From: a virus
Direction: 5' to 3' (one strand)
Virus record (IMG/VR): IMGVR_UViG_3300011115_000874
Location: 64,001 to 128,000 of that record
DNA: 64,000 nt
How positions within the stretch are numbered: the first letter of the stretch is position 1; every line of letters starts with the position of its first letter. Under the pieces are notes generated by a model. It did no database searches, was not told where the DNA came from, and worked only from the letters and a program-made list of their open reading frames with translations. The position numbers and the translations under genes are program-made. Below, piece after piece: positions 33,844-55,243 of this stretch.

Positions 33844-34503
33844 TTATTTATTATTAATTATTTTATATTCCCAAATATAATTAAAGGAGGTGTATTTTCC
33901 TAATTTATTTTTATCCCTTTGTCTAATTATATTTTTATCATTATTACGACAACAATTATTTATAGCAGTATAACTTAAATTTAAAACTTGAGATGCTAGT
34001 TTTCCAGTTTCCCACTCTTTTATAATATTACCATTTAAATCTTTTTGTAGTACTGGGCGGCCAAATGATTTAGATGATGACTTAGATAAGTTTTTTCTCC
34101 ATTCATTATTTTTAGAATGGCCTTCCATTGCTTTACTTATAGATTGTTTATGGTCTTGGCTTAATGGTATTCCTTTATGAGCCATAGATATTTTATTTTT
34201 AGTAGTTTTTGATAATGGTTTATATTTTCTTCCTTCCCATGAACCATAAGCCTTATTTGTTCTATTATAGAATTCAGGGTTAGATTTTACATCAAAAAGA
34301 TTTAACCAATATTCTTCTCTTTGCCATAATTCTTCTTTGCTATTACAGTGTTCTAAAATTTCTTTTTTAAAATTTTTTCTACCATATTTTTTTATAGCCT
34401 TTTTTAAATCTAAGCCACTTCCTAAGTATTTAGGATTATTATTTACATCTTTACCAATATATTTTTTATTGTTGGTAAGATTTATTGTTTGATATATTAC
34501 CAT
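33844..34503 (-). CDS. GIY-YIG homing endonuclease (Seg-like, NUMOD repeats)
   Basis: VIYQTINLTNNKKYIGK, YLGSG, REEYW, FYN; late motif 34522-34529. Confidence 0.88.
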   Translation of the reverse strand: MVIYQTINLTNNKKYIGKDVNNNPKYLGSGLDLKKAIKKYGRKNFKKEILEHCNSKEELWQREEYWLNLFDVKSNPEFYNRTNKAYGSWEGRKYKPLSKTTKNKISMAHKGIPLSQDHKQSISKAMEGHSKNNEWRKNLSKSSSKSFGRPVLQKDLNGNIIKEWETGKLASQVLNLSYTAINNCCRNNDKNIIRQRDKNKLGKYTSFNYIWEYKIINNK

Positions 34504-40187: not shown

Positions 40188-42770
40188 TTAAAAAGCGAAA
40201 AATTTAGCTACGTTAGCATTTAATGGTGGGAACTCCCACTTTAAATCTTTATAAAGTTCCTTTAATTTGTTTAGTAGTAATGATTCAAAAATTTCATCTA
40301 CATCAATATATGTCTTAACAAATTTTTCAATCTCATCAGGTACCTTAGCATTTGGTAATCCAATTGTATCTAACTTATAAGGATTAGCTTTTAAGTTAAT
40401 TATGAATATCTTATCACCTTCTACTACTGATTCGTATTGTTTATCTAAACGTTTGAATTTTAATAAGTCATTGTAACGAACAGCTGCTTTAGTATTACTA
40501 GGTGCTTTCAATCTGAATGTGCTAAACATTTCACCTGCTCTAGGAGCGTTCCTATATGATGCTATTTGTTTTACACCTGTTGGTTTGCCTAATTCTCGAG
40601 GATCTAATGTCTTAACTAATTTATAGAAATCAATAATGGTTTGATCTATTTCTGTTTTAGACTTACCAAACAAAATATCTTTAATTAGTTGTTCACCAAA
40701 GCCTTTAAATCGTTTATTCATGTTAGACTTCATCAACTCAAGTCCTTTCATGTCTAGCTCTTCAACAGCAACACCTTCCTTATTAGTAATATACATTGCA
40801 TATCTTCTCTTACCTGTAACTAAGATACCTTTAGCAATTACCTCTTGTTTTAATTGGAAATAATGTTTTTTAGGATTAATATTAAATACTTTCTTACATA
40901 ACTCATTTAAATAGTAGTTAGACTCATCTTGAATTTCAGTAGCCATTTTTAATATTAATTCATCTTTTTGTTCAGGTGTTGAATTAGGATACCTATGTTT
41001 TAGTAAGTCACCTAACTCAATATACATGGAGTCAGTATCACTAATACAAATAAACTGTTTATCAGTATTTAACTCAGTATTAAGTTTATTATTAGCAAAC
41101 ACAATTGATTCCTGTGTAAGTCTTTGTCCGCTGTTAGTAATAGCAGCACTACAAATTAAATGTCCGTCTGTATATCTCCATCCATTCTTAGCAAATGTGC
41201 CATACATAGCGTTTTGCAAGATCTTAAATGCATGTTGGAACAAATCATATAGTTTATAATTAGCCCAATCTTCAGATTTACCTGCTGTTTTCTTTAAACC
41301 TCTATAATGTTCTCGTTTTTCAAACCAACCTTCTAAAATCTTAGCAACTACACTTTGTTCATCAGTCCTAAACATAGCACCTGAAGCTGATAATGTGAAT
41401 TCATTATCTTCAATTATCTTAATCAGCTTGCCAATTGATATTTGAGCTGCTTGTAATGTGTAATTTTTTTTATTTAGTTTTTCAATTGTTATTACTTCAC
41501 TAGGATCTCGTTCCTTAAGTTTTTCTAAACTATGATTTTGTTCATAGGTTGGATTTAAAGTAACAATTCTACCTACTAATGTTTCAATTCCTAAATTAAG
41601 TGACTTAATGATTGAGGGATATAGTGAAGTAAAGTCTAAGTCAATTACATCAAAGTATAGACCTGGTATTGGTTCTAATAAGTAACCACCTGCATATGTT
41701 GAGTTAGTTGCCTTACGAGATGGGTTATGAGTTGTTGGTTTATTAGGTGAAATAATACCTTCACGTCGTAAGTGCTTTAATATAGCACCTTCATTCATTA
41801 CAGTGTTATAATAAATTGACTCATAAGGTATATTACAAATATGAGAAATCATAACTGTCAATTCAATAAACTTTAATTTGTCTTCTAGTTTTTCTAGAAT
41901 CTCAACGTCTCGTAAGTTATAGTCAATAAAAGTATTTAAATCATTTTTAAACAATGTATTCAAATTACCTTCATATTCAATCTTACCTAACCCAACATAT
42001 TTGGTTCCAATGTCACCTAATTTATATGATGGTTCTTCTTTCATAATGTACTTCTTATGAAGTAACATATAATCTAGATGATTCACACCTCCAATTTTAA
42101 CTTGGTTTTCACCATTAAAATCACGTGCCTCAACTCTACCTATTGGTGATAACCGGCTTACCTCGTCTGTACCTACAACTTGCGACATTCGGTAGTATAA
42201 GTACGGTAAGTCGAAGTAAGCCGAGTTATAGCCGACTAATATGGTGGGATCTAACTCTTCATACTTAGATAAAAACTTACCTATTAATTCTCGTTCTGAG
42301 CCACAAGGTATAATAATTTTATCGTCCTGGTTCGTTTCAGGTATTTGTTTTGACTTATCAACAATAAAACATATCTTTTGTTTAGTAGTCACATCTATCA
42401 GAGCAATAGATGTTAAGGGCATAGGAGCAGACCTAATATATTCAGGTGTTAGTGCTCCACCCATTTCAATCTCGATATCTATATAGACTATATTATGCCA
42501 AGATGGAACTACATCATCAAATTTATAATATAGTTCTCGTAACACATATAATGACTTGTCGATATCTTTTTCTAGTAGGTCAGGATCGTTTTTATCTAAT
42601 TTCTTAGTAGGTATAGCCCATCCTCCAGTTAGTACTGGTTTAGCCCCTTCTTGTTGTTCATTTACTCTTTTCCAGTAAGTAGGCTGGAATTGGAAATCCA
42701 TCCAGCCTTGCTTATCGTCTCGTAAATGGTAAGTATAAGTTTGAAAGTCATAATAAATACTTTGATACAT
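40188..42770 (-). CDS. polB: Family B DNA polymerase (T4 gp43-like)
   Basis: ExoI DIE, ExoII GYNSAYFD, ExoIII YNLRD, DFTSLYPS, KILQNAMYG, SDTDS, KRRY. Confidence 0.96.
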   Translation of the reverse strand: MYQSIYYDFQTYTYHLRDDKQGWMDFQFQPTYWKRVNEQQEGAKPVLTGGWAIPTKKLDKNDPDLLEKDIDKSLYVLRELYYKFDDVVPSWHNIVYIDIEIEMGGALTPEYIRSAPMPLTSIALIDVTTKQKICFIVDKSKQIPETNQDDKIIIPCGSERELIGKFLSKYEELDPTILVGYNSAYFDLPYLYYRMSQVVGTDEVSRLSPIGRVEARDFNGENQVKIGGVNHLDYMLLHKKYIMKEEPSYKLGDIGTKYVGLGKIEYEGNLNTLFKNDLNTFIDYNLRDVEILEKLEDKLKFIELTVMISHICNIPYESIYYNTVMNEGAILKHLRREGIISPNKPTTHNPSRKATNSTYAGGYLLEPIPGLYFDVIDLDFTSLYPSIIKSLNLGIETLVGRIVTLNPTYEQNHSLEKLKERDPSEVITIEKLNKKNYTLQAAQISIGKLIKIIEDNEFTLSASGAMFRTDEQSVVAKILEGWFEKREHYRGLKKTAGKSEDWANYKLYDLFQHAFKILQNAMYGTFAKNGWRYTDGHLICSAAITNSGQRLTQESIVFANNKLNTELNTDKQFICISDTDSMYIELGDLLKHRYPNSTPEQKDELILKMATEIQDESNYYLNELCKKVFNINPKKHYFQLKQEVIAKGILVTGKRRYAMYITNKEGVAVEELDMKGLELMKSNMNKRFKGFGEQLIKDILFGKSKTEIDQTIIDFYKLVKTLDPRELGKPTGVKQIASYRNAPRAGEMFSTFRLKAPSNTKAAVRYNDLLKFKRLDKQYESVVEGDKIFIINLKANPYKLDTIGLPNAKVPDEIEKFVKTYIDVDEIFESLLLNKLKELYKDLKWEFPPLNANVAKFFAF

Positions 42771-42788
42771 AACCTTTATTTAAAAATT

Positions 42789-43127
42789 TTAAGTTATTAC
42801 TAACGTGAATACTCCTGTTCCTTTTAATCTATAATTTGTCCCAGTAATAGCTACTGATGGGGTGAATGTAATAACTGTGGTTCCAGGTTGTATAACAGCT
42901 GAAGCAACATACGGGGTTTGTATAAATCCTGATAATGCGGGGGCAGACCATGATCCATTAGCACAAGCTTGAGGAATATTAATAAATGTTCCATTATTAT
43001 CTGGTATTGTTTCTAAAGTGAAATATGATGAACCACCAGTATTAGTAAAAGTAAATGTTTTTAATCCTAATAAGTTCTCTCCAACTGTTCCTATTCCGTA
43101 TAATTGTGCTGATGTATAAGATGCCAT
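42789..43127 (-). CDS. Late beta-rich virion-like protein
   Basis: T/S/G-rich; late motif 43142-43149. Confidence 0.55.
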   Translation of the reverse strand: MASYTSAQLYGIGTVGENLLGLKTFTFTNTGGSSYFTLETIPDNNGTFINIPQACANGSWSAPALSGFIQTPYVASAVIQPGTTVITFTPSVAITGTNYRLKGTGVFTLVIT

Positions 43128-43152
43128 TATTTATTGTTTATCATAAATATGG

Positions 43153-43647
43153 TCACTTGTCTAGAAACTGTTTAAGATTAGGTCTAAAATAGTTTATTGA
43201 TTTCATTACCTTACGATCTCGAGAGCGATATACTACATAGTAATCACCTTGTTTTTCATAATGGCAACGTTCACCTTGTTCTTGTTCTCTAAGACGAACA
43301 GTGAAATTAGCTTCCTCTTCTGTCTTACAAGCTTTACTCATGTTTGAAGCTTGAACCTCAGCATACGCGGGTAAGATTTTATCTTTTAGACCATGAAGCA
43401 TAGCTCCATTACCTAATGAAACATAAGTAATATCACAAAGTGCATCTAACACTTCTACAACATTTCCTGTTTCACAAGCGTGTTTATATTCCTCTAATTC
43501 CTCTAGAATAAAATCATAAACAAACATCCATTCTTTTTTATCTGGGATAGTAGGTTCATAGTTATTTGGTTTACCCATTGTAGCGTTAAATTCCTCTACC
43601 TCGCTAACAAATGGAACATAATTTTCTTTAGATTGAGACATGGCCAT
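43153..43647 (-). CDS. MazG-like/PRA-PH family NTP pyrophosphohydrolase
   Basis: V.EFN, EELEEY, EVLDALCD, EVQASNMSK, KVMKS. Confidence 0.85.
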   Translation of the reverse strand: MAMSQSKENYVPFVSEVEEFNATMGKPNNYEPTIPDKKEWMFVYDFILEELEEYKHACETGNVVEVLDALCDITYVSLGNGAMLHGLKDKILPAYAEVQASNMSKACKTEEEANFTVRLREQEQGERCHYEKQGDYYVVYRSRDRKVMKSINYFRPNLKQFLDK

Positions 43648-44323
43648 TATTTATTTTAAGTGAATCAAAAAATTCTTTACGTGCTAAATTATCGTTTTCC
43701 ATAAACACACCTGATGCTTTAGTAGTAACCATTGCAGCACCTTGATGTTTAATACCTCTACAACTAACACAATTGTGAGTTGCAACTACAGTAACAATAA
43801 CACCATGATTACCTTCACAAACTTTATTTACTGCTTGATGAATTGCTGCTGTTAATTGTTCTTGGATAGCACCTCTACGACCAAAGTGTTCTACAATACG
43901 ATTTAATTTAGATAAACCAATTACTCGACCTTCAGCACCTGCAATGTAACCAATATGTACTACACCTCTAATTGTTTGGTGATGGTGTGAACACATTGAA
44001 GTTAATTGAATATTACGTTCAATAATTACCCCATCATAACCATCCGATGGGAATGAAGTAATATCAGTAAATCCATTATAGCGACCAGCCCATAGATCAT
44101 TAACATATGCTTTAGCTACACGACGAGGTGTATCAGCAGAGTTAGGATCGTTTTTCCAATCACATTTTAATGCTGTTAAGAAGTTACCAAAATGTTCAGT
44201 TGCTTCTTCAATCATTTGTTGCTTTTCTTCATCCGTTAATGGGCGATCTAAAGCTGATCCATTTGCTAGACCTGTATTCACACACTCAATGTCGTTGTGA
44301 AATTTTCTTCTATTATTTTCCAT
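43628..44323 (-). CDS. folE: GTP cyclohydrolase I
   Basis: TPRRVAK, SMCSHH, GLSKLNR, IQEQLT, HNCVSCRG. Confidence 0.95.
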   Translation of the reverse strand: MENNRRKFHNDIECVNTGLANGSALDRPLTDEEKQQMIEEATEHFGNFLTALKCDWKNDPNSADTPRRVAKAYVNDLWAGRYNGFTDITSFPSDGYDGVIIERNIQLTSMCSHHHQTIRGVVHIGYIAGAEGRVIGLSKLNRIVEHFGRRGAIQEQLTAAIHQAVNKVCEGNHGVIVTVVATHNCVSCRGIKHQGAAMVTTKASGVFMENDNLARKEFFDSLKINNGHVSI

Positions 44324-44347
44324 ATAACCTAATATATTAATTTATTT

Positions 44348-44857
44348 CTAGACTGCCAAAATATATGGCAAACTCCTTTTCTTACCTAAATCATCATCCA
44401 TTCCAAACCCAACTACCCATTCATCCTCAAGAACAAAACCGTAAAGTGAACCTGTAGGCATATCTACTTCATTAATATAACGTTTAATTAAAGTGACCAT
44501 TTGAACACTTGCTGGGTCAAATTGGTAGAAATGATTTGCTAATGCATTCATTGTTATTCCTGAGTCGTAAATGTCATCTATAAGATAAACATGCTTACCA
44601 GTTACATCTACTGATTTGTCTAGTATCATATTTAGGTCACCTCGTTCTTTACCTTCATATGATCTTACTTTTACAAAATCACATTCTGGATCTAGTGAGG
44701 ATAATTTTTCAACTAGTTTAGAATAAAAAACAAACCCACCATTTAGTACACATACTAAAACAATAGGAATTTTTTCTGATTTATGGCGATTTAAAATTTG
44801 TGTAGCGATAGAATCAATTCTTGATTCAATAATTCTATTTTCAAATAATACTTTCAT
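44348..44857 (-). CDS. hpt: Purine phosphoribosyltransferase (HPRT-like)
   Basis: VCVLNGG, VRSY, PRPP loop LIDDIYDSGITM, WVVGFGMD. Confidence 0.88.
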   Translation of the reverse strand: MKVLFENRIIESRIDSIATQILNRHKSEKIPIVLVCVLNGGFVFYSKLVEKLSSLDPECDFVKVRSYEGKERGDLNMILDKSVDVTGKHVYLIDDIYDSGITMNALANHFYQFDPASVQMVTLIKRYINEVDMPTGSLYGFVLEDEWVVGFGMDDDLGKKRSLPYILAV

Positions 44858-45116
44858 GTAATTCTTTTATTGAGTGTAATCCTGGGTAATGTTTAATTTT
44901 TCCTTTATTAGATAATATTACGTGTGGGTAATAATCTACTGAAAATGCTGTTTCTAAATCTGTGTCTTCATTAATAAAAATCATTTCGAATCCAAGTTTA
45001 TCAGCAATTTCCTGGATCATAGGGCGAGCTACTTTACATCCTCCACACCATTCAGCATAGAAGAATGTGACAGTATTTTTTGTTTTAAGCGCCTCAGTTA
45101 ATAATTTTTTATCCAT
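44841..45116 (-). CDS. Thioredoxin
   Basis: FYAEWCGGCK, cis-Pro region YYP. Confidence 0.85.
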   Translation of the reverse strand: MDKKLLTEALKTKNTVTFFYAEWCGGCKVARPMIQEIADKLGFEMIFINEDTDLETAFSVDYYPHVILSNKGKIKHYPGLHSIKELHESII

Positions 45117-45898
45117 TATACTTCTCGTTTAGTGTCAAATGCAATAATATGTTCTCTACCTGTAAAATTATAACCATTGTCTCTACAGAAATCCATCACC
45201 ATAGGATATACTCGAATTAATTCATCTCTTGTATCACCAGGAGGCATTAACCAAGTTTTACGTTTTGGAATATCCATCTCAACTCTAAATGCTTCAATCT
45301 CAGTCCATGCTTCAGGCATTTCGATAGGATTGCAAACTGGTTTAAAATGATAGTCATAATGGTATTCTAATGTTTTTCTTATCGTTTCTTTATCCAAACG
45401 GTGTTTATTATGTTGGTCCACCATTTTTTGGTCTGCGACTTTACCTTGCGGTGTAAGAGTCCCAATTGCAGGAACACTGTTACTGAACTTAGGACTAAGA
45501 GATATAAGGCCAATAGGGAAGTCAGTTTCAACGAAATGACTACCTTCTGTTTCAATTGTAATAAATAAGCCACGTTTTTCTGCTAAATGAGTTAATTCGT
45601 TTACTAGATCAGGATGCATTGTAGGTGAACCACCTGTTAACATCATTTCTCTAATATGAGGGTTATTGTCATAAATAGCTATAATATCATTAAATGTATA
45701 TTTTCCTTTCTCAGGATGAATACTTGTATACCAACTATCACACCACCCACCATCACCAAACCAACATCTATGAGTACATCCTGTAGTTCTAATAACTACT
45801 GTAGGCATCCCAGCTCTACTACCTTCTGATTGTACAGCTGTATACAGCTCTACAATAGGTAATTTTTTATTATAGTCTTCTATTCTTCCTGGTTTCAT
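45116..45898 (-). CDS. queE: 7-carboxy-7-deazaguanine synthase (radical SAM)
   Basis: VQSEG, GCTHRC-x7-CD, LTGG.P, IETEG, SLSPK. Confidence 0.92.
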   Translation of the reverse strand: MKPGRIEDYNKKLPIVELYTAVQSEGSRAGMPTVVIRTTGCTHRCWFGDGGWCDSWYTSIHPEKGKYTFNDIIAIYDNNPHIREMMLTGGSPTMHPDLVNELTHLAEKRGLFITIETEGSHFVETDFPIGLISLSPKFSNSVPAIGTLTPQGKVADQKMVDQHNKHRLDKETIRKTLEYHYDYHFKPVCNPIEMPEAWTEIEAFRVEMDIPKRKTWLMPPGDTRDELIRVYPMVMDFCRDNGYNFTGREHIIAFDTKREV

Positions 45899-46377
45899 AT
45901 TTCTTCGTAAATTGAGCTGTTATTATCATTTTCAAAACACTCTACTTTAATACATTTACAACGACCAGCATCTGTTTTAGCTAATACTTCATTAAAGTGT
46001 TCATACACTAAACGAGCATTACTTTCAGCACCCATCTTTTCTAAGAAATGTACTTTACATAGTCCTTCCATTTGCATTTGCTCAAACAAATCACGATATG
46101 GATCATCTGCTTGAATTAATGTTGTATGATCCCACATATGGTCCATCCAATCCTTTAAGCCATTACCTTTAGGTGGTGTTTTAAATCCACCATAATCAAC
46201 AATCCAATTCATATCATCTAATTGTTCATCAATATTAGGTTCATTAGATGCAAACCATACTTTAAATTTTAAAGCATAACCATGTAATAGCTGGCAGTGT
46301 GAATGTGCTGCTTTATATTGTCTGATTGCTACTGAGTAGTTTTCAAATAATTTAGTTGATATATATCTTGTTGCCAT
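45895..46377 (-). CDS. queD: 6-carboxytetrahydropterin synthase
   Basis: SHCQLLHGY, WIVDYG, DH, GAE, ECFE. Confidence 0.9.
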   Translation of the reverse strand: MATRYISTKLFENYSVAIRQYKAAHSHCQLLHGYALKFKVWFASNEPNIDEQLDDMNWIVDYGGFKTPPKGNGLKDWMDHMWDHTTLIQADDPYRDLFEQMQMEGLCKVHFLEKMGAESNARLVYEHFNEVLAKTDAGRCKCIKVECFENDNNSSIYEEI

Positions 46378-46378
46378 A

Positions 46379-46633
46379 TTATTCTCCGTTTAACCAATTA
46401 ACAATTTGTGAGTGTGATTTTACTCCTGTAAAACGTCTTAATTCTTGTCCGTTTTCAGCTAGTACTACTGTAGGTACATTTCGTATATTAGCAACCTCTA
46501 GTATTGCTGGGTCAACATAATCAATATTTTGTTTATGGACTGGGATCTGTCTTGCAATTTCATCCATAATTGGGCCCAATGTCTGACATGGAGTGCACCA
46601 ATTTGCTGTGTAGTAGTATAATTCTTTAGGCAT
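46379..46633 (-). CDS. Thioredoxin
   Basis: TANWCTPC, VPT. Confidence 0.85.
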   Translation of the reverse strand: MPKELYYYTANWCTPCQTLGPIMDEIARQIPVHKQNIDYVDPAILEVANIRNVPTVVLAENGQELRRFTGVKSHSQIVNWLNGE

Positions 46634-46790
46634 TGTCTTCAGTTTCTGGATTTTGTCGTTGTAATTGTTCTTTTAGCATAGCCATAAATTTACGTTCCAT
46701 GACTAATTTATTTTTAGCAACAGTTTCATTACGCTTTGCAATACGTTTGTTGTGGGCTTTCTTACCACCTCGTTTTTTAGATGTTGGCAT
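46626..46790 (-). CDS. Small basic protein (54 aa, MPTSKKRGGKK...)
   Basis: Read manually. Confidence 0.6.
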   Translation of the reverse strand: MPTSKKRGGKKAHNKRIAKRNETVAKNKLVMERKFMAMLKEQLQRQNPETEDNA

Positions 46791-47589
46791 TATTATGATT
46801 ATTTAAAATTGTTTTTACATGTTCTACTACTGTTTCCCAACTTACTGGGCCTGTCTCATCAGCATATTCAACTGGATCTGGTTTGCCTAGTTTCATAAAT
46901 GCTTCAACTCGTTCTACAGATGATGCTGATTTATAATCGCTGTACCAGTTAAGAAAGTAATAAATTGGTTTATATGATGTATTAGTGCGCTTATACACTT
47001 CATTAAAGTTTAAACCAAGTTTATTTACACATTTATCTCCATCTTCTAAAATACCAAACTTATCAGTATTAAGATAAGGAGTATAATGATATACTTTTTC
47101 AGCACCCCAGTTACCTGCTTTAAATGCTTCAAAATCAGCATCTCTAAATTCTTGACGACAGTCAGGATAAATAGCATGATCACCAGCATGAATACCCATT
47201 GCGATAGCACATTCAGTATCTTTTTGTTCAGCAATTGATAATGCGACTGCTTGAATAATAGAACTAAATATTTTATTACGATTTGGAACTACTGTTGCTT
47301 TCATATTTTCTTCAGCATAATGTCCTTCAGGTACTTCTTCACCTCCAGTTACTAAAGCTGAGTTTAGTAGTTGTGATAATCCATCTAATTTAATTACTTG
47401 ATGTTTTACATTTTGTCCTTTTTGATTTATGTATGATACTAAATCTTTAGCACGCTCTAATTCTACATTATGTTTTTGTTCATAATCGAATGATAGTGCT
47501 GTAACTTCATAGCCATTGGCAAGTAGATGAAGCAATAGTGTGGAGCTATCCATTCCTCCACTTAGTGATAACACTGCTTGTTTCTTCAT
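46777..47589 (-). CDS. queC: 7-cyano-7-deazaguanine (preQ0) synthase
   Basis: SGGMDS, VPNRN, YPDCR; start corrected to MKKQAV. Confidence 0.95.
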   Translation of the reverse strand: MKKQAVLSLSGGMDSSTLLLHLLANGYEVTALSFDYEQKHNVELERAKDLVSYINQKGQNVKHQVIKLDGLSQLLNSALVTGGEEVPEGHYAEENMKATVVPNRNKIFSSIIQAVALSIAEQKDTECAIAMGIHAGDHAIYPDCRQEFRDADFEAFKAGNWGAEKVYHYTPYLNTDKFGILEDGDKCVNKLGLNFNEVYKRTNTSYKPIYYFLNWYSDYKSASSVERVEAFMKLGKPDPVEYADETGPVSWETVVEHVKTILNNHNNANI

Positions 47590-47590
47590 T

Positions 47591-47854
47591 TTAACAATAT
47601 TTTTTATATAAATTTTCAATAATTTCTATTTCTTCATTACTCATTGAGTAAAACTTTGAAGATAATCCAATTAATTTATCATGGAATTGAGATTCCAATA
47701 ATGATGTAGTTGGTGGGATATCATAACCTTCTAATTTGGTTGTTATGGTTGTATATCCATCATCTTCTAGCCATTCGGCCATTTTTTGTTTTTCATAAGA
47801 ACCCATGTTATCATAAACATCATCTAAATCTACGTCAATACTAATCCAACTCAT
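47591..47854 (-). CDS. Acidic hypothetical protein
   Basis: ORF track. Confidence 0.7.
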   Translation of the reverse strand: MSWISIDVDLDDVYDNMGSYEKQKMAEWLEDDGYTTITTKLEGYDIPPTTSLLESQFHDKLIGLSSKFYSMSNEEIEIIENLYKKYC

Positions 47855-47859
47855 AACTT

Positions 47860-48666
47860 TTATTTTACTATTTTATCTAAACGATTAATTTTTCTAAATT
47901 TATTTACATTGTAATGTAAAGCATACCAGTTAATATCTTCAGGAGCGCGATTCATAACATGGTCAATTTTAGTAATTGGTTTTTCATCTAAACCATGTTC
48001 CTTATACATTTTATCTTCCATTGCAGCCATAATTGGATTTGAAGTATCTATACTTTCAATGAATGGGTAATTCTGGTGGAATAAAAACTCTTGAGGAGCA
48101 GCACATCCAAGTAAGTGAACTCTATCACTAGATTGAATAACATCGTTATTATACAACTTACCTATAACGTTTACTCGACCCATTGCAGTAGAAATTGCTG
48201 GTAGTGGGTGTATGAAATGGTTTTTATAATAACCCGCACCATATGAAAATGCTATTTTCTTATAACCTAATGCTTTGTATTTTAAATAACATTCAGCTGC
48301 TTCATCAATGTTAGTTGCTTGAACTACTGCTACTTTAGTAGTATAGTGAGGTAATTTAATTTTAGCCCATTCAACAGCATTATCAATAGATGCTTGCATA
48401 TCTTGCCATACATCAGGTACTATAAATTCATTTGGTTCAAAATAATTAACCCAATGTAATAGACGTTCTGTTTCATAGGCATGACCTAATTCATGTAAAC
48501 TATTATCCATGATAATATAACGACCATCTTTCTTTGCTTGATCAAAATACTTAAAGTATTCATACTCACTATCTAGTAAGTGAGGCAAACAATAATCATA
48601 ATCATTGAATGTTTGGGAAATGTTTAGTACTGCTAATGGTACTTCATGTGAGACTTTTACTTTCAT
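47860..48666 (-). CDS. TGT/DpdA-fold protein (7-deazaguanine insertion or transfer)
   Basis: IIMDNS, VPD, VAVVQ, VHLLG, SIDTS motifs of the TGT TIM barrel; heads the que cluster. Confidence 0.75.
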   Translation of the reverse strand: MKVKVSHEVPLAVLNISQTFNDYDYCLPHLLDSEYEYFKYFDQAKKDGRYIIMDNSLHELGHAYETERLLHWVNYFEPNEFIVPDVWQDMQASIDNAVEWAKIKLPHYTTKVAVVQATNIDEAAECYLKYKALGYKKIAFSYGAGYYKNHFIHPLPAISTAMGRVNVIGKLYNNDVIQSSDRVHLLGCAAPQEFLFHQNYPFIESIDTSNPIMAAMEDKMYKEHGLDEKPITKIDHVMNRAPEDINWYALHYNVNKFRKINRLDKIVK

Positions 48667-48717: not shown

Positions 48718-49239
48718 TTAATAAGGTAGATCATTTTCTGGTGTATTCTTTAGAAATGTTTTGTACTGGTTGATCAACTCTTCAGTAGTACCTTCAGCAT
48801 GTTCATAAATGAATGTATGTACTTGTTCTTTAGTACCACCAATCCAATGTCTTAGACTGTATTTTAGACTCTCCATTCGTTCTCGTTCATCACGTTCAAA
48901 ATCTTTTCTTAGATTCTCAATACGTCTATTATACATTTTAATAGCATTACGTTCGTGTTCTTGTTTTACTTCAAAACCTTTATCACTGTTACGTATTTCT
49001 GCTATTTCTTCAGCCATCCACCAATACTCATAATTGATATACTTGGCATATGGTGAGTATTCAAAGTCACCATTTTTCATTTTTTCATCAATACGAGCTT
49101 TAGCTCCTAATGGCTTATGAATTGGGTAACGTCTATGCCAATAAAATACATTAAACTTAGCTAGTTTAGCTGGTTTAGGTGGTGCTTCAATGCCAAATAT
49201 AGGATTGAATTCTTTTAAAACTTGTTCTACTGTAACCAT
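48718..49239 (-). CDS. Hypothetical protein
   Basis: ORF track. Confidence 0.7.
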   Translation of the reverse strand: MVTVEQVLKEFNPIFGIEAPPKPAKLAKFNVFYWHRRYPIHKPLGAKARIDEKMKNGDFEYSPYAKYINYEYWWMAEEIAEIRNSDKGFEVKQEHERNAIKMYNRRIENLRKDFERDERERMESLKYSLRHWIGGTKEQVHTFIYEHAEGTTEELINQYKTFLKNTPENDLPY

Positions 49240-50496: not shown

Positions 50497-52221
50497 TTAT
50501 CCCTCACAACTGATGCATTCTGATAAACGCTGTAGGTTATCTCCTCTTAATACTGACTCAGTGCGTAAGTAGTATAATGTTTTAATACCTAACTTATGAG
50601 CTTCTTTATGTACTTGGCTAATCCACTTAGGAGTATCATTTGGGTCAAAGCATAAATTTAATGAGATAGCTTGATCTACATATTCTTGTCTAACACCATT
50701 TTGTCTTACAATTTCTAATTGGTTGATTTCTTTAAATGTTAAGAATACTTCCTTTTCCTCATCAGTTAAAATATAAGAAGGAACATTAATAACTGAGCCT
50801 TGGTCTTTTAGAATTTGTTCCCAAACACTATCAATGTTATATCCTTTAGTTTCAAGTAATTCCTCTAATATTTTATTACGCTTAATGAATACACCTTTTG
50901 CTGTTTTCAAATTATAAACATTAGCAGGAATAGGTTCGATTGAAGGTGATACACCTCCTGAAATATGAGCATTAGATACTGTAGGTGCGATTGCTAAGTG
51001 ATGAGTATGTCTCATACCTGTACCTTTACACCATTCTGGTTCACCATATAATTCTGCTTGGTCGTGAGATGCTTTTAAAGCGCCTTTCTCAATAAAGTCA
51101 GATATCATTCTTGTATAAGCAGTTGCTTGAATACCTACAAATGGTAAGTTCTTTGATTGTAAAAATGTATGCCATCCTAAAACACCAATTCCAATTGCTC
51201 TACCTTTAGTAGCAGAACGAACTGTATTTTCCATAAACTTAACATTCTTAGCTCTATCAATGAATTCTTGTAATACACCTTCTAAGAACCAACAAGTCAA
51301 TTCAGGTAATGTCATTCCATTTTCAAATGTGTATTCTTTCCATTCATCCCAACGAGCCAAGTTTAAAGATGATAAACAACAAATAAATGAGTGTAATTCG
51401 TCTGTGTATAATGAAATTTCAGAACAAATGTTAGTCATTGACACATGTAAGTTATTTTTCTTATATGCTTCAGGATTTGAATTATTAACATTATCTTCAA
51501 ACATGATATAAGGTTCACCTGTTTCAAGACGTGTTTTTAATATTTCACCCCACAACTTCATCGCTCTAGGCTCTTTGTTGTCTAGGTCAGTCATAAACTG
51601 ATCATCAATAACAACACATTGGTGTAAATTTAAACATTGACGATTAACATCACCTTTTGGTCTACGAATTTGTAAAAATTCTTCAACATCAGGGTGATTA
51701 ATGTTTAAGTTAACTGATGCTGCTCCTCTACGAACTGAACCTTGGTTAGTAGCTAAAATAGTTGAATCATAGATTTTAGCCCATGGAACAATACCTTCAG
51801 ACACACCATTGTCTTTAATTGCTTTACCTCGGCCTCTAATGCGAGATAAACCAATACCTACTCCTCCGCCTTGAGATGATAATCTCATTAATTCAGAGTT
51901 AGCATCTGCAATGCCTTCAATACTATCTCCAACATCGATACCAAAGCATGAAATTGGCATTCCACGTTCTGTACCTAAGTTTGATAATACTGGTGATGCT
52001 AAGCATAACCAATTCTTAACTATTGCCTCGTAAAAGAATGGTTGTAAATCTTTACGCTTTAATCTACGTGATGCAGATTTAGTTACTCTCTTGTATGCAT
52101 CAAACACATCTTCATCAGGTAGTAAATAACCTTTTGAAATCATACTAACTGCAATCTCATCCATCCAACTAGGATAGTTTTTTCCTTTAATCCACCCGTC
52201 TGTGTCTACTTGTATACTCAT
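50497..52221 (-). CDS. nrdA: Ribonucleotide reductase class I alpha subunit (no ATP cone)
   Basis: ISCF, GGGVG, NQGSVRRGA, TNICSE, APT, TLYYLR, C-terminal CISCEG. Confidence 0.96.
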   Translation of the reverse strand: MSIQVDTDGWIKGKNYPSWMDEIAVSMISKGYLLPDEDVFDAYKRVTKSASRRLKRKDLQPFFYEAIVKNWLCLASPVLSNLGTERGMPISCFGIDVGDSIEGIADANSELMRLSSQGGGVGIGLSRIRGRGKAIKDNGVSEGIVPWAKIYDSTILATNQGSVRRGAASVNLNINHPDVEEFLQIRRPKGDVNRQCLNLHQCVVIDDQFMTDLDNKEPRAMKLWGEILKTRLETGEPYIMFEDNVNNSNPEAYKKNNLHVSMTNICSEISLYTDELHSFICCLSSLNLARWDEWKEYTFENGMTLPELTCWFLEGVLQEFIDRAKNVKFMENTVRSATKGRAIGIGVLGWHTFLQSKNLPFVGIQATAYTRMISDFIEKGALKASHDQAELYGEPEWCKGTGMRHTHHLAIAPTVSNAHISGGVSPSIEPIPANVYNLKTAKGVFIKRNKILEELLETKGYNIDSVWEQILKDQGSVINVPSYILTDEEKEVFLTFKEINQLEIVRQNGVRQEYVDQAISLNLCFDPNDTPKWISQVHKEAHKLGIKTLYYLRTESVLRGDNLQRLSECISCEG

Positions 52222-52231
52222 TTTTTGTTTT

Positions 52232-53182
52232 TTATAAATCGTCCCAATCTGCTGTTGACTTTGAGTAGCTAGTTACTCTTCCTGCAAAGAAATCTTGATG
52301 TGTTTTACCACTTGTTAAATGACCAAACCACTCAATTTGTTTTAATAAATTTGGATCAATGTCATTATAAATTGCTTTATAACCTAATTCTATCATTTTC
52401 TCATTAGCGCGTGCTTTAATGAAGTTTTTTAGTTGATTAACATTTAATCCATCAACATCTCCCATTTCAAATGCTTTATCAATGAAATCAAATTCTAATT
52501 GTACTGCTATTTGACATGCTTCTATTACAGCGTCTCTTAATCTATCATTATCTAATTCAGGTTGTTCATTAAGTAATGTTCTAAATAACCAACATCCTGC
52601 TTTAGAATGTAATGATTCATCTCTAACACTCCATTCAACAATCTGACCTGTTCCCTTCATTAAGTTTCTTAATTGGAAACTCATTAATATAGCAAACGAA
52701 CTAAACAAATTTACTCCTTCAGTGAACGCTGAAAATATAGCTAATGATAATGCTCTTTCCTCTAATGTTTCACCTGGTGTTTCAATTAAACACTCAATTT
52801 TTGCTTTTGATGTTTCGTCTTCTAAGAACGCTTGAAAATCATCTAAACCTAATTCTTCATTTAAGCGAGCGTATGCTTCAGCATGAATTGATTCAAAATC
52901 AGCAAACACACGAGCCATTGCTTGTATTTCAGGTTTTGGAAACCATACTGATACTTTTGTCGACCAGTAATCGTTTACGTGAACCTCTGTTTGAGCGAAT
53001 GACTTTAATATGTTTCCAATTAAATTCTTCTCAGATTCTGTTAATTTGCCTTTCCAGTCACCTAAATCAGATGCTAGTGGAACTTCGTCTGCTAACCAAT
53101 GTGAGCGATGTTGATCTTTATAAAAATCAAACGCTTGTTGGTACTCAAACGGCTTGTAAAAATTTCTTATTTCAGTAATCAT
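52232..53182 (-). CDS. nrdB: Ribonucleotide reductase class I beta subunit
   Basis: FESIHAEAY, EGVNLFSSF, RDESLH, DFF; start corrected to MITEIRN. Confidence 0.96.
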   Translation of the reverse strand: MITEIRNFYKPFEYQQAFDFYKDQHRSHWLADEVPLASDLGDWKGKLTESEKNLIGNILKSFAQTEVHVNDYWSTKVSVWFPKPEIQAMARVFADFESIHAEAYARLNEELGLDDFQAFLEDETSKAKIECLIETPGETLEERALSLAIFSAFTEGVNLFSSFAILMSFQLRNLMKGTGQIVEWSVRDESLHSKAGCWLFRTLLNEQPELDNDRLRDAVIEACQIAVQLEFDFIDKAFEMGDVDGLNVNQLKNFIKARANEKMIELGYKAIYNDIDPNLLKQIEWFGHLTSGKTHQDFFAGRVTSYSKSTADWDDL

Positions 53183-53198
53183 ATATTTTAATATAACA

Positions 53199-54563
53199 TC
53201 AAGATTGTAGTTCAAAAAATTTCTTTTGAAGAATGTCTCGATCTAGGCTATTTATTTCACTAAAACTGTTCACAGGTTTAGATGGTGTATATGATTCTTC
53301 ATTCTCATCATAGTCATTAAATATTTCAAAACGACCTGTTGATGTATCAATTTTGGCTCCAAATGTCATACCATCACCTCCATATCTGTTTTTCATAATG
53401 TGAAATCTACCTGTTCCCGCTACTTTGTCTTCTTTCTTACGTGAGAGAGAAATAGCCACATCTGTAATCATGACTTTGTCATAGCTACCTGCGGCTTTAT
53501 CACCTTCAATAACGTCGTCTTTAGCTCCTGCTCTATTAACTTGAGATACACTCCAAATAGGTAACTTCAATTCACGAGCAAGACCTTTAGTACTAAGATA
53601 AATATCATCAATTTCATCCTTACGTTCACGATTGTTTCTTTTTGATCGAAGTAAGTCTACATAATCAATAAGAATCAGATCTGGTTTGAAATCTAAGTCA
53701 ATACACTTTTGAATATGTGATTCTATTGTAGAAATAGATGCCTTACCAGGTGAATATTCTTTAATAACTAAGTTACCTGGTAACTCAAGTATTTCTTTTT
53801 CAACTTGGTCTTTAAAATTCATAATATTATTTACAGGTATTCCTGTTAAACAAGCATCATATCGTCTTCCAACATAATTTTCACCTAACTCTAAAGTATA
53901 GTGCACTACATTAAAACCTAATTGAACAGCATGTGCTCCTAAGGCAATCAATGTCCATGATTTACCTCCTCCAGGATTACCAAATATCAATCCAAAGTCA
54001 CCTTCACCTAAGCCACCTTGTAATAGATCATTAAATAAAAACCAAGGTGTAGGAATTGGATTTCTGTCTTCTTCTCTATATCGAGACTCAACATCTTTAC
54101 TATATTCTAATCCTAAATTCTTATCACCACCAGCTTTTAAAGCGTTATCAACTAAGTTTCTAATTGAATCATAATCACCAGCATTTAATAAATCTACTGA
54201 TGTTAATAATGCTTTTTTTAATTGTTGGTTTTTGCAGAAGTTAGAAAACTCTTCCTCTACATAAGCTAAATCATCGTCTGATGCTTTATATGCTTCTTTT
54301 AATTGTTCTTTAATTGATAATTGTAAAACTTCATTATCAATTTTCTTAACTTGTACTTTCAAGACTTCCATACTTGGTGTAGTATGGTATTTGTCATAGT
54401 ACTTTAAGATTTCGCTTATAATCCATTTATGTGCTGTGTTACTAAAGTAATCATCACTAATTATATCATGGATATTAATTAGAAGTTCTTTATGTGTTAA
54501 TAAACACGATATTATTTTAGTTTGAAAATGAGTACCGTATGCCTCTAGGGTTGATAATGTCAC
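53199..54563 (-). CDS. Replicative DnaB-like helicase (T4 gp41-like)
   Basis: GNPGGGKS, YTLEL, IDYVDLL, SQVNR, KNRYG. Confidence 0.92.
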   Translation of the reverse strand: MTLSTLEAYGTHFQTKIISCLLTHKELLINIHDIISDDYFSNTAHKWIISEILKYYDKYHTTPSMEVLKVQVKKIDNEVLQLSIKEQLKEAYKASDDDLAYVEEEFSNFCKNQQLKKALLTSVDLLNAGDYDSIRNLVDNALKAGGDKNLGLEYSKDVESRYREEDRNPIPTPWFLFNDLLQGGLGEGDFGLIFGNPGGGKSWTLIALGAHAVQLGFNVVHYTLELGENYVGRRYDACLTGIPVNNIMNFKDQVEKEILELPGNLVIKEYSPGKASISTIESHIQKCIDLDFKPDLILIDYVDLLRSKRNNRERKDEIDDIYLSTKGLARELKLPIWSVSQVNRAGAKDDVIEGDKAAGSYDKVMITDVAISLSRKKEDKVAGTGRFHIMKNRYGGDGMTFGAKIDTSTGRFEIFNDYDENEESYTPSKPVNSFSEINSLDRDILQKKFFELQS

Positions 54564-54586: not shown

Positions 54587-55204
54587 TTAATCTTTATACC
54601 TCCAGATAAATTTACCTGCAGTTTTTGTTTTTTGTTGGCAGCATAAACTTATACTACCATAATGTATTCCTAATTGTCGATATGCTTCTCTTCCACTTAC
54701 CCATTCTTTAATTAAATTATTTTCTAAATCAAATTGAAGGATAGGTTTATTGTTAAAATTTTTAACTTTAGCTTTTCCTTTAGTTTTATCTCCAAAACCT
54801 TTAGGTTTAGGTTTACCTTTTAAACTTTTACTAATCTTATCTCCCCATGTTATTTTCCTTCCCTTATTTGATGGTTTAGATTTACCTGTAATTTTGTTTA
54901 TAAATGATAGTCTGATGGTTTCATATATGCGGCTACTAAGTTTAAATTCGTCTAAACTTTTTGGTTTCTGTTTTCCAATAGCCATTAACCATAAAGCATA
55001 TAATAATTTATCATTATTAGGATAGATTTCACAAAGTAATCTATGGCATATAAAATGTTCTCGCGCTGTTAACTCAACTAAATTAGTTTTATCATTTGAA
55101 CCACCCATACATTTAGGTACAATATGATGTTTTTCTTTATAACCATCTAACTGTCTTGTTTTAGTTCGTTCTACAATTTGATTGTATATTTTTTGATAAT
55201 TCAT
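54587..55204 (-). CDS. HNH homing endonuclease with NUMOD motifs
   Basis: MNYQKIY, EKHHIVPKCMGGSN...NLVELTAREH; late motif 55217-55224. Confidence 0.88.
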   Translation of the reverse strand: MNYQKIYNQIVERTKTRQLDGYKEKHHIVPKCMGGSNDKTNLVELTAREHFICHRLLCEIYPNNDKLLYALWLMAIGKQKPKSLDEFKLSSRIYETIRLSFINKITGKSKPSNKGRKITWGDKISKSLKGKPKPKGFGDKTKGKAKVKNFNNKPILQFDLENNLIKEWVSGREAYRQLGIHYGSISLCCQQKTKTAGKFIWRYKD

Positions 55205-55243
55205 CTTATATTTTATTATAAATATAAGCAATATTATCAAAAA

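Follow-up and report, generated by a model that had tools for sequence, protein, structure and literature searches.

Phages carrying a transglycosylase of the DpdA3 subfamily raise the question of how every guanine in their DNA comes to be replaced. The subfamily was defined by Cui, Hutinet et al. 2023, in whose study all three DpdA3 phages tested (CP220, phiST and immuto) showed complete replacement, and insertion after replication was argued solely from the presence of a DpdA homolog. The same question is raised by the locus at positions 40188-48666 of a 64,000-nucleotide stretch of viral DNA (the window; positions 64,001 to 128,000 of the IMG/VR record IMGVR_UViG_3300011115_000874). It belongs to a phage genome that is complete at 160,798 bp, carries a terminal repeat of 128 bp and has nearly all of its genes on the minus strand; the source is an uncultured freshwater phage with a gene order related to that of Flavobacterium phage immuto. 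The locus is best explained as a DpdA3-type 7-deazaguanine DNA-hypermodification module with a new variant of the gene set, in which the base pathway ends at QueC, the purine phosphoribosyltransferase (PRTase) is of Hpt type and the polymerase is of family B (PolB). A sequence-only reading of the window had proposed that guanine is replaced before replication; the 7-deazaguanine cluster it described is real and complete replacement is plausible, whereas the route it proposed through the PRTase, a MazG-like pyrophosphatase and PolB is weakened by the results presented here.

Every gene named in that reading was found at the locus, and Pfam and fold matches agree that the gene with the fold of tRNA-guanine transglycosylase (TGT) and DpdA, queC, queD, queE, the PRTase, folE and the MazG-like gene form one co-oriented block beside PolB. 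In the list, CPH4 is 6-carboxy-tetrahydropterin, CDG 7-carboxy-7-deazaguanine, ADG 7-amido-7-deazaguanine, preQ0 7-cyano-7-deazaguanine, PTPS 6-pyruvoyl-tetrahydropterin synthase and NTP-PPase nucleoside triphosphate pyrophosphohydrolase; lengths are in amino acids (aa). The genes that carry the argument are the following.

47860..48666, minus strand: DNA-guanine transglycosylase assigned to the DpdA3 subfamily, 268 aa, with a minimal TGT fold that lacks the zinc subdomain.
46777..47619, minus strand: QueC (CDG to preQ0 via ADG), PF06508 with E 2e-39, PP-loop motif SGGMDS.
45895..46377, minus strand: QueD, PTPS-family CPH4 synthase, PF01242 with E 2e-10, 36% identical to immuto QueD.
45116..45898, minus strand: QueE, radical-SAM CDG synthase, PF04055, 68% identical to immuto QueE.
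44348..44857, minus strand: Hpt-like 6-oxopurine PRTase, directly upstream of FolE, PF00156 with E 1e-19.
43628..44323, minus strand: FolE, GTP cyclohydrolase I, PF01227 with E 6e-42, 61% identical to immuto FolE.
43153..43647, minus strand: all-alpha NTP-PPase (PRA-PH/MazG-like, DR2231-type), PF01503 with E 1e-9.
40188..42770, minus strand: PolB with a 3'-5' exonuclease domain, PF00136 with E 6e-28 and PF03104 with E 5e-17.

Read 5' to 3' along the minus strand, the order is NrdB, NrdA, four small unknown open reading frames (ORFs), the TGT-fold gene, an 87-aa ORF, QueC, a thioredoxin, QueD, QueE, a second thioredoxin, the PRTase, FolE, the NTP-PPase, a 112-aa ORF and PolB, followed by GroES and GroEL.

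The AlphaFold2 model of the gene at 47860-48666 (predicted local distance difference test score, pLDDT, of 96.9) matched bacterial and archaeal TGT and the DpdA structure 7ui4 with a Foldseek probability of 1.0; by sequence, the match to bDpdA 7ui4 reached E 0.31 only. In tblastn searches, relatives in cultured phages were limited to the immuto DpdA (36% identity, E 7e-46), the Campylobacter phages of the CP220 group (33-34%) and the Bacillus BSTP phages, and a profile of 98 family sequences was aligned by hhalign to phiST CGPG_00065 with a probability of 99.3%. These relatives and the profile match answer the question of DpdA subfamily that the first reading had set as a check, and they place the transglycosylase in DpdA3 as published. 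At 90% identity the family falls into 3852 clusters, and at 50% identity into 1419. Across the 98 DpdA3 sequences D54, D85, H184, G187, D207 and P211 are invariant, and the motif HLLG..P..SID..P aligns with bDpdA, with a putative equivalence to TGT D102 and D280 that does not come from superposition. Three further leads on this enzyme were abandoned. Isoelectric point and net charge, considered as a hint of DNA binding, did not discriminate, the VpKK5 DpdA being equally acidic; an apparent link to NadR in the Bacillus BSTP phages turned out to be the DpdA3-like gene itself, mis-annotated as 'NadR'; and fusion partners, considered as Rosetta stones, gave just formyltransferase fusions and homing-endonuclease merges. 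The former include natural DpdA3-formyltransferase (DpdN-like) fusions in two metagenome proteins of 447 aa (P0180 and P0229), and endonuclease domains are merged with DpdA3 in the metagenome proteins P0123 and P0151.

All four enzymes of the preQ0 pathway are encoded at the locus, and FolE, QueD, QueE and QueC would convert GTP to preQ0. A PTPS match was given by one gene genome-wide, with no second QueD. The sequence-only reading had seen no queF, gat-queC or formyltransferase in the block, and this holds further than it claimed: neither QueF nor an immuto-type formyltransferase was detected by tblastn with the immuto proteins in the whole complete genome (ArcS, DpdM and methyltransferases had no dedicated search), and the sole PF14489 match in the genome is weak and lies inside FolE. 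A Gat-QueC fusion was not seen, the QueC ORF showing the QueC domain alone. Since FolE, QueD, QueE and QueC are present without QueF, formyltransferase or decarboxylase, the end product should be preQ0 or its amide ADG; the MED16 paper gives no sequence mark in QueC that separates a preQ0 from an ADG endpoint. Judged from this gene set, the base in the DNA of the phage is probably preQ0.

Complete replacement of guanine is plausible here because the transglycosylase is a DpdA3 and all three tested DpdA3 phages are fully replaced. The contrary view, that modification is only partial and sequence-specific as in phages with DpdA1 or DpdA2 (0.1-30% of G; Cui, Hutinet et al. 2023) and that the accessory genes serve general nucleotide metabolism, appears improbable. 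It can draw on the fact that the DpdA3 of the window is just 33-36% identical to those of the tested phages, that the clade is known from genes alone and that the block is located inside a general replication and nucleotide-metabolism region. Besides the uniform result in the three tested phages, it is opposed by the distribution of the PRTase, which argues for selection tied to the module.

This distribution was obtained from IMG/VR loci encoding a DpdA3 with 54% or more identity to that of the window, 35 of which have at least 7.5 kb of downstream sequence. QueC, QueD, a thioredoxin and a PRTase of either type occur in all 35, QueE and PolB in 34 and FolE in 33. Because the block recurs in dozens of IMG/VR contigs, the gene arrangement is not due to chance; at the DNA level, megablast of the block against cultured phages gave no match. 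Alleles within the block are mosaic: the closest relatives (L005 and L008, DpdA3 95% identical) have a QueD just 39% identical to that of the window, and a more distant one (L012, DpdA3 75%) has a QueD 99% identical, a mismatch which points to recombination within the module.

The PRTase was found in 35/35 loci in the same slot adjoining FolE, as 30 Hpt-type and 5 Gpt-type enzymes. Both types are 6-oxopurine enzymes, and the Gpt type is found in immuto and phiST as well. The enzyme of the window matches HGXPRT/HPRT structures (E 1e-24) and retains DDIYDSG as its phosphoribosyl pyrophosphate (PRPP) motif, the catalytic Asp, an SY loop and a purine site of the form W-V-G-x-G-x-D, with D94, D95, D98, S66, Y67 and D154 conserved, R or K at the O6 position and W at the stacking position. 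Its nearest kin in cells, at 29-38% identity, are ordinary hpt genes from Bacteroidota and Desulfobacterota. Of the 80 closest cellular matches, 78 are housekeeping hpt that have no Que-gene cluster nearby, and the two best 'genome' matches are phage contigs binned into metagenome-assembled genomes (MAGs). In the Queuovirinae phage VpKK5, FolE (gp32, L090:6998-7900) carries a fused Gpt-type PRTase at its N-terminus, in which the RGG, DDIxDxGxT and PWE motifs are intact, and genes annotated as FolE in Stenotrophomonas, Pseudomonas and Sphingomonas phages also cover a Gpt-type region. No phosphoribosyltransferase is mentioned in Cui, Hutinet et al. 2023 or in Hutinet et al. 2019 (PMC6884629).

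Two functions had been proposed for this enzyme. In the first, it forms a nucleotide from PRPP and preQ0 or CDG, kinases and ribonucleotide reductase lead to the deoxynucleoside triphosphate, the MazG-like enzyme removes dGTP and PolB selects the analogue. Such an activity has a precedent in TubE, a PRPP transferase proven to be specific for CDG, and ToyH has been proposed to do likewise for preQ0 (PMC6112128). The PRTase is moreover universal in the clade and a ribonucleotide reductase is nearby; purine PRTases are rare in cultured phages other than deazaguanine phages; and three positions of the active site set the phage enzymes apart from bacterial Hpt in a systematic way (K to R, F to W and E to D). 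The observations on the other side are of several kinds. The motifs are those of canonical 6-oxopurine enzymes and the cellular kin are housekeeping hpt; CP220, with all G replaced, has no PRTase; DpdA3 would be left without a role although it is always present; and the fusion of the PRTase is to FolE, the first and not the last enzyme of the pathway, in a subfamily with partial modification. Phage 9g, the type member of Queuovirinae, has up to 27% of its deoxyguanosine replaced (Hutinet et al. 2019, PMC6884629), so that a PRTase adjoining FolE is by itself no sign of a nucleotide-level route. In the second, offered as an alternative by the same reading, the PRTase recycles guanine released by DpdA, and this fits better with its universal presence, its position and its fusion to FolE, which the proposed guanine-salvage loop would explain. 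The sequences thus make it most likely that the PRTase recycles expelled guanine and does not build a nucleotide for the polymerase.

The other two parts of the first proposal bear on the NTP-PPase and on PolB. The NTP-PPase of the window is 77% identical to that of immuto, with a four-helix core and invariant metal motifs EELEE and DALCD. By sequence it gave no match to solved structures, and its AlphaFold2 model (pLDDT 92) matched only DR2231 of Deinococcus (template-modelling score 0.6-0.7), a MazG-like enzyme with crystal structures that contain dUMP and dUMPNPP. In 8/35 loci the MazG-like gene is missing and the slot between FolE and PolB holds another gene, which is dCTP-deaminase-like in 6 loci and encodes a trimeric dUTPase in 2; the MazG-like gene and these replacements never occur together in the 35 loci, and no other dUTPase was found in this genome. 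Removal of dGTP by this enzyme is not supported, since the enzyme families that use the slot share the handling of dUTP and dCTP. The modelled fold and the exchange of genes are most simply explained by a house-cleaning enzyme of dUTPase type. In phiST, a gene of MazG/dUTPase_2 type directly follows FolE; a kinship of the window protein with it was considered, and hhalign showed no relation.

As reported earlier, PolB has ISDTDS where YGDTDS is usual, and this is a genuine motif C (residues 576-581, 41028-41045); motif A (DLDFTSLYPS) and motif B (KILQNAMYG) are both ordinary. Among relatives with the same block the start of motif C varies (YVDTDS, YSDTDS, TSDTDS and ISDTDS), and the syntenic phage immuto has PolA at the same position. 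As both motif C and polymerase family vary, no polymerase is tied to the module, and the suggested selectivity of PolB for the analogue is weakened. Co-evolution of the polymerase with the module is not what these sequences indicate, and PolB has the features of an ordinary replicase. With the MazG slot interchangeable with dUTPases and the polymerase variable, the complete route from a PRTase-made nucleotide to a selective PolB is left with only a slim chance of being correct.

From the gene identities, folds, conserved motifs and co-occurrence described above, we infer what each enzyme acts on, how far replacement goes and that the exchange takes place on DNA. DpdA3 would put preQ0 or ADG in the place of guanine in the DNA of the phage, probably at every G or at most of them. 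Each exchange would expel one guanine, and each new base would cost one GTP; the Hpt-like PRTase would return the expelled guanine to GMP and then to GTP for FolE. For this combination of exchange on DNA by DpdA3, a PRTase acting as guanine-salvage helper and an NTP-PPase serving house-cleaning, we see about an even chance.

Several facts weigh against exchange on DNA followed by salvage. Elsewhere, complete replacement typically goes with pre-replicative systems. No DpdA3 has been shown to act on DNA, attempts in E. coli having failed (Cui, Hutinet et al. 2023), and TubE is a proven PRTase that builds a 7-deazapurine nucleotide (PMC6112128). Three distant lineages of DpdA3 phages have an NTP-PPase adjoining FolE, a recurrence that could point beyond house-cleaning, and the substrate of the MazG-like enzyme does not follow from a modelled fold. 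Finally, a P-loop kinase of the AAA_28 family is a regular neighbour of DpdA3 elsewhere. In a second set made up of loci with a distant DpdA3, 32 of which have good flanks, QueF is present in 31, a formyltransferase in 25 and the AAA_28 kinase, no more than 3 kb away from DpdA3, in 29; the kinase also flanks DpdA3 in immuto and CP220. It is labelled 'thymidylate kinase' in annotations (L001:13478-14002 and L002:12813-13355; distant loci L100-L179), and no kinase is mentioned in Cui, Hutinet et al. 2023.

These neighbourhoods bring in another explanation for the locus, in which DpdA3 performs the exchange before replication on free deoxyguanosine, dGMP or dGTP. AAA_28 and host kinases would lead to the triphosphate, the phosphohydrolase would supply the substrate and lower dGTP, the polymerase would use the analogue and the PRTase would still recycle guanine. 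A route through modified dGTP was earlier proposed for Campylobacter phages, according to Hutinet et al. 2019 (PMC6884629). Consistent with exchange before replication, in addition to the 29/32 distant loci, an AAA_28 kinase and an HD-domain/kinase fusion lie on opposite sides of DpdA3 in CP220; in phiST the PRTase, a dNMP-kinase-like gene and the ribonucleotide reductase are close together; and an AAA_28 ortholog is present in this genome (genome positions 2743-3273, outside the window; E 1e-17 to that of immuto) and one also in 3/4 near-complete genomes of the clade. Yet here the ortholog is 109 kb from the block, by the terminase region, no AAA_28 kinase lies within 10 kb of DpdA3 in the clade of the window (0/26 loci), and the fourth of those genomes, 97% complete, has none. 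The same kinase family also occurs beside the terminase gene in Streptomyces phages without FolE, for which reason it was dropped as a marker exclusive to DpdA3, and the hydrolase slot resembles a dUTPase slot. We know of no TGT-fold enzyme that acts on mononucleotides. For the present phage this explanation is rather unlikely. Its extension to DpdA3 phages in general is held somewhat less doubtfully, as a tentative proposal: guanine would be replaced before replication by TGT-fold exchange on a free deoxynucleoside or nucleotide, the AAA_28 kinase and, in some lineages, the PRTase as well would lead to a pool of 7-deaza-dGTP and the hydrolase by FolE would lower the canonical pool. A thymidylate kinase proper (PF02223) was also searched for in this genome, and only the clamp loader was matched.

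Compared with the known systems, the locus shares the DpdA3 subfamily and the FolE/QueD/QueE core with immuto, CP220 and phiST. The likeness to immuto extends to synteny, with PRTase, FolE, NTP-PPase and DpdA3, then polymerase, GroES and GroEL; unlike the window, immuto adds a formyltransferase, a small kinase adjoining DpdA3 and QueF, uses PolA and has a Gpt-type PRTase. Relative to the three tested phages, the window has QueC and lacks QueF, the DpdN formyltransferase and DpdL, so the preQ0 or ADG predicted from its gene set is made in this way by none of them. It also differs from them by the two thioredoxins in the block, the Hpt-type PRTase, PolB and a non-adjacent AAA_28 kinase. Queuovirinae and other phages with DpdA1 or DpdA2 (9g, CAjan and VpKK5; PMC6884629) likewise carry the preQ0 pathway and a DpdA by the polymerase, with a purine PRTase associated with FolE in Queuovirinae (fused in VpKK5), whereas their DpdA is of another subfamily and the VpKK5 cluster has no NTP-PPase. 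The TubE/ToyH clusters (PMC6112128) also have a PRTase of the PF00156 purine type among FolE, QueD and QueE genes, a likeness by description and not by sequence; unlike the window, they have no DpdA/TGT and make free nucleoside antibiotics. In Z-genome phages, base synthesis is combined with a pool-depleting hydrolase and a polymerase (PurZ, MazZ, DatZ and DpoZ). The window departs from this concept by its DNA-type transglycosylase, by the lack of a dedicated polymerase and by a MazG-like fold nearest to DR2231.

The remaining features in and near the block are listed below. The two thioredoxins and three small ORFs without assignment had not been mentioned by the earlier reading, and its statement that nrdAB is close to the block is correct (nrdA and nrdB at 50497-53215).

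50497..52221 and 52232..53215, minus strand: NrdA and NrdB, class I ribonucleotide reductase, PF02867 with E 1e-94 and PF00268 with E 2e-64.
48718..49239, minus strand: conserved ORF of 173 aa directly upstream of DpdA3, with a homologous family in 64/80 clade loci and no match in Pfam, PHROGs or Atlas.
47591..47854, minus strand: small ORF of 87 aa between DpdA3 and QueC, with no Pfam or PHROG family matched and a homolog in just two related loci.
46379..46633, minus strand: thioredoxin, CxxC motif with active site CTPC, PF00085 with E 4e-13.
44841..45116, minus strand: second thioredoxin, CxxC motif with active site CGGC, PF00085 with E 7e-12.
42789..43127, minus strand: small ORF of 112 aa with no family matched and a homolog in just one related locus, probably outside the pathway.

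A promoter-like element, TTGGCx...TATATT, recurs on the minus strand (48707-48679, 49567-49539, 44359-44331 and 39659-39631) and at some sites, among them those immediately upstream of DpdA3 and of FolE, has a GGCC hairpin attached. Genes of homing-endonuclease type (GIY-YIG; NUMOD1) are located in the replication region at 33844-34503 and 54587-55240 on the minus strand. The segment 27369-31092 (minus strand), which follows the replication genes at a distance of a few kb downstream, encodes a GDP-mannose 4,6-dehydratase together with two group-1 glycosyltransferases, whose target might be the virion or DNA. Contigs with the same phage block have been binned into bacterial MAGs, one of Lacinutrix (L181) and one of Microbacteriaceae (L182); contamination by phage sequences, or phage DNA associated with the host, is the probable reason, and the Lacinutrix case is compatible with a Flavobacteriia host.

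The locus represents a very large uncultured DpdA3 clade with a compact and invariant gene set. On the strength of its sequences, this set (DpdA3, QueC, QueD, QueE, FolE, a purine PRTase and an NTP-PPase) predicts a genome that would be fully substituted by preQ0. Two regular accessories go unmentioned in Cui, Hutinet et al. 2023 and in Hutinet et al. 2019, the purine PRTase beside or fused to FolE and, in other lineages, the small kinase beside DpdA3. As fully 7-deaza-substituted DNA resists many restriction enzymes, the module bears on the evasion of defence by phages and on DNA tools.

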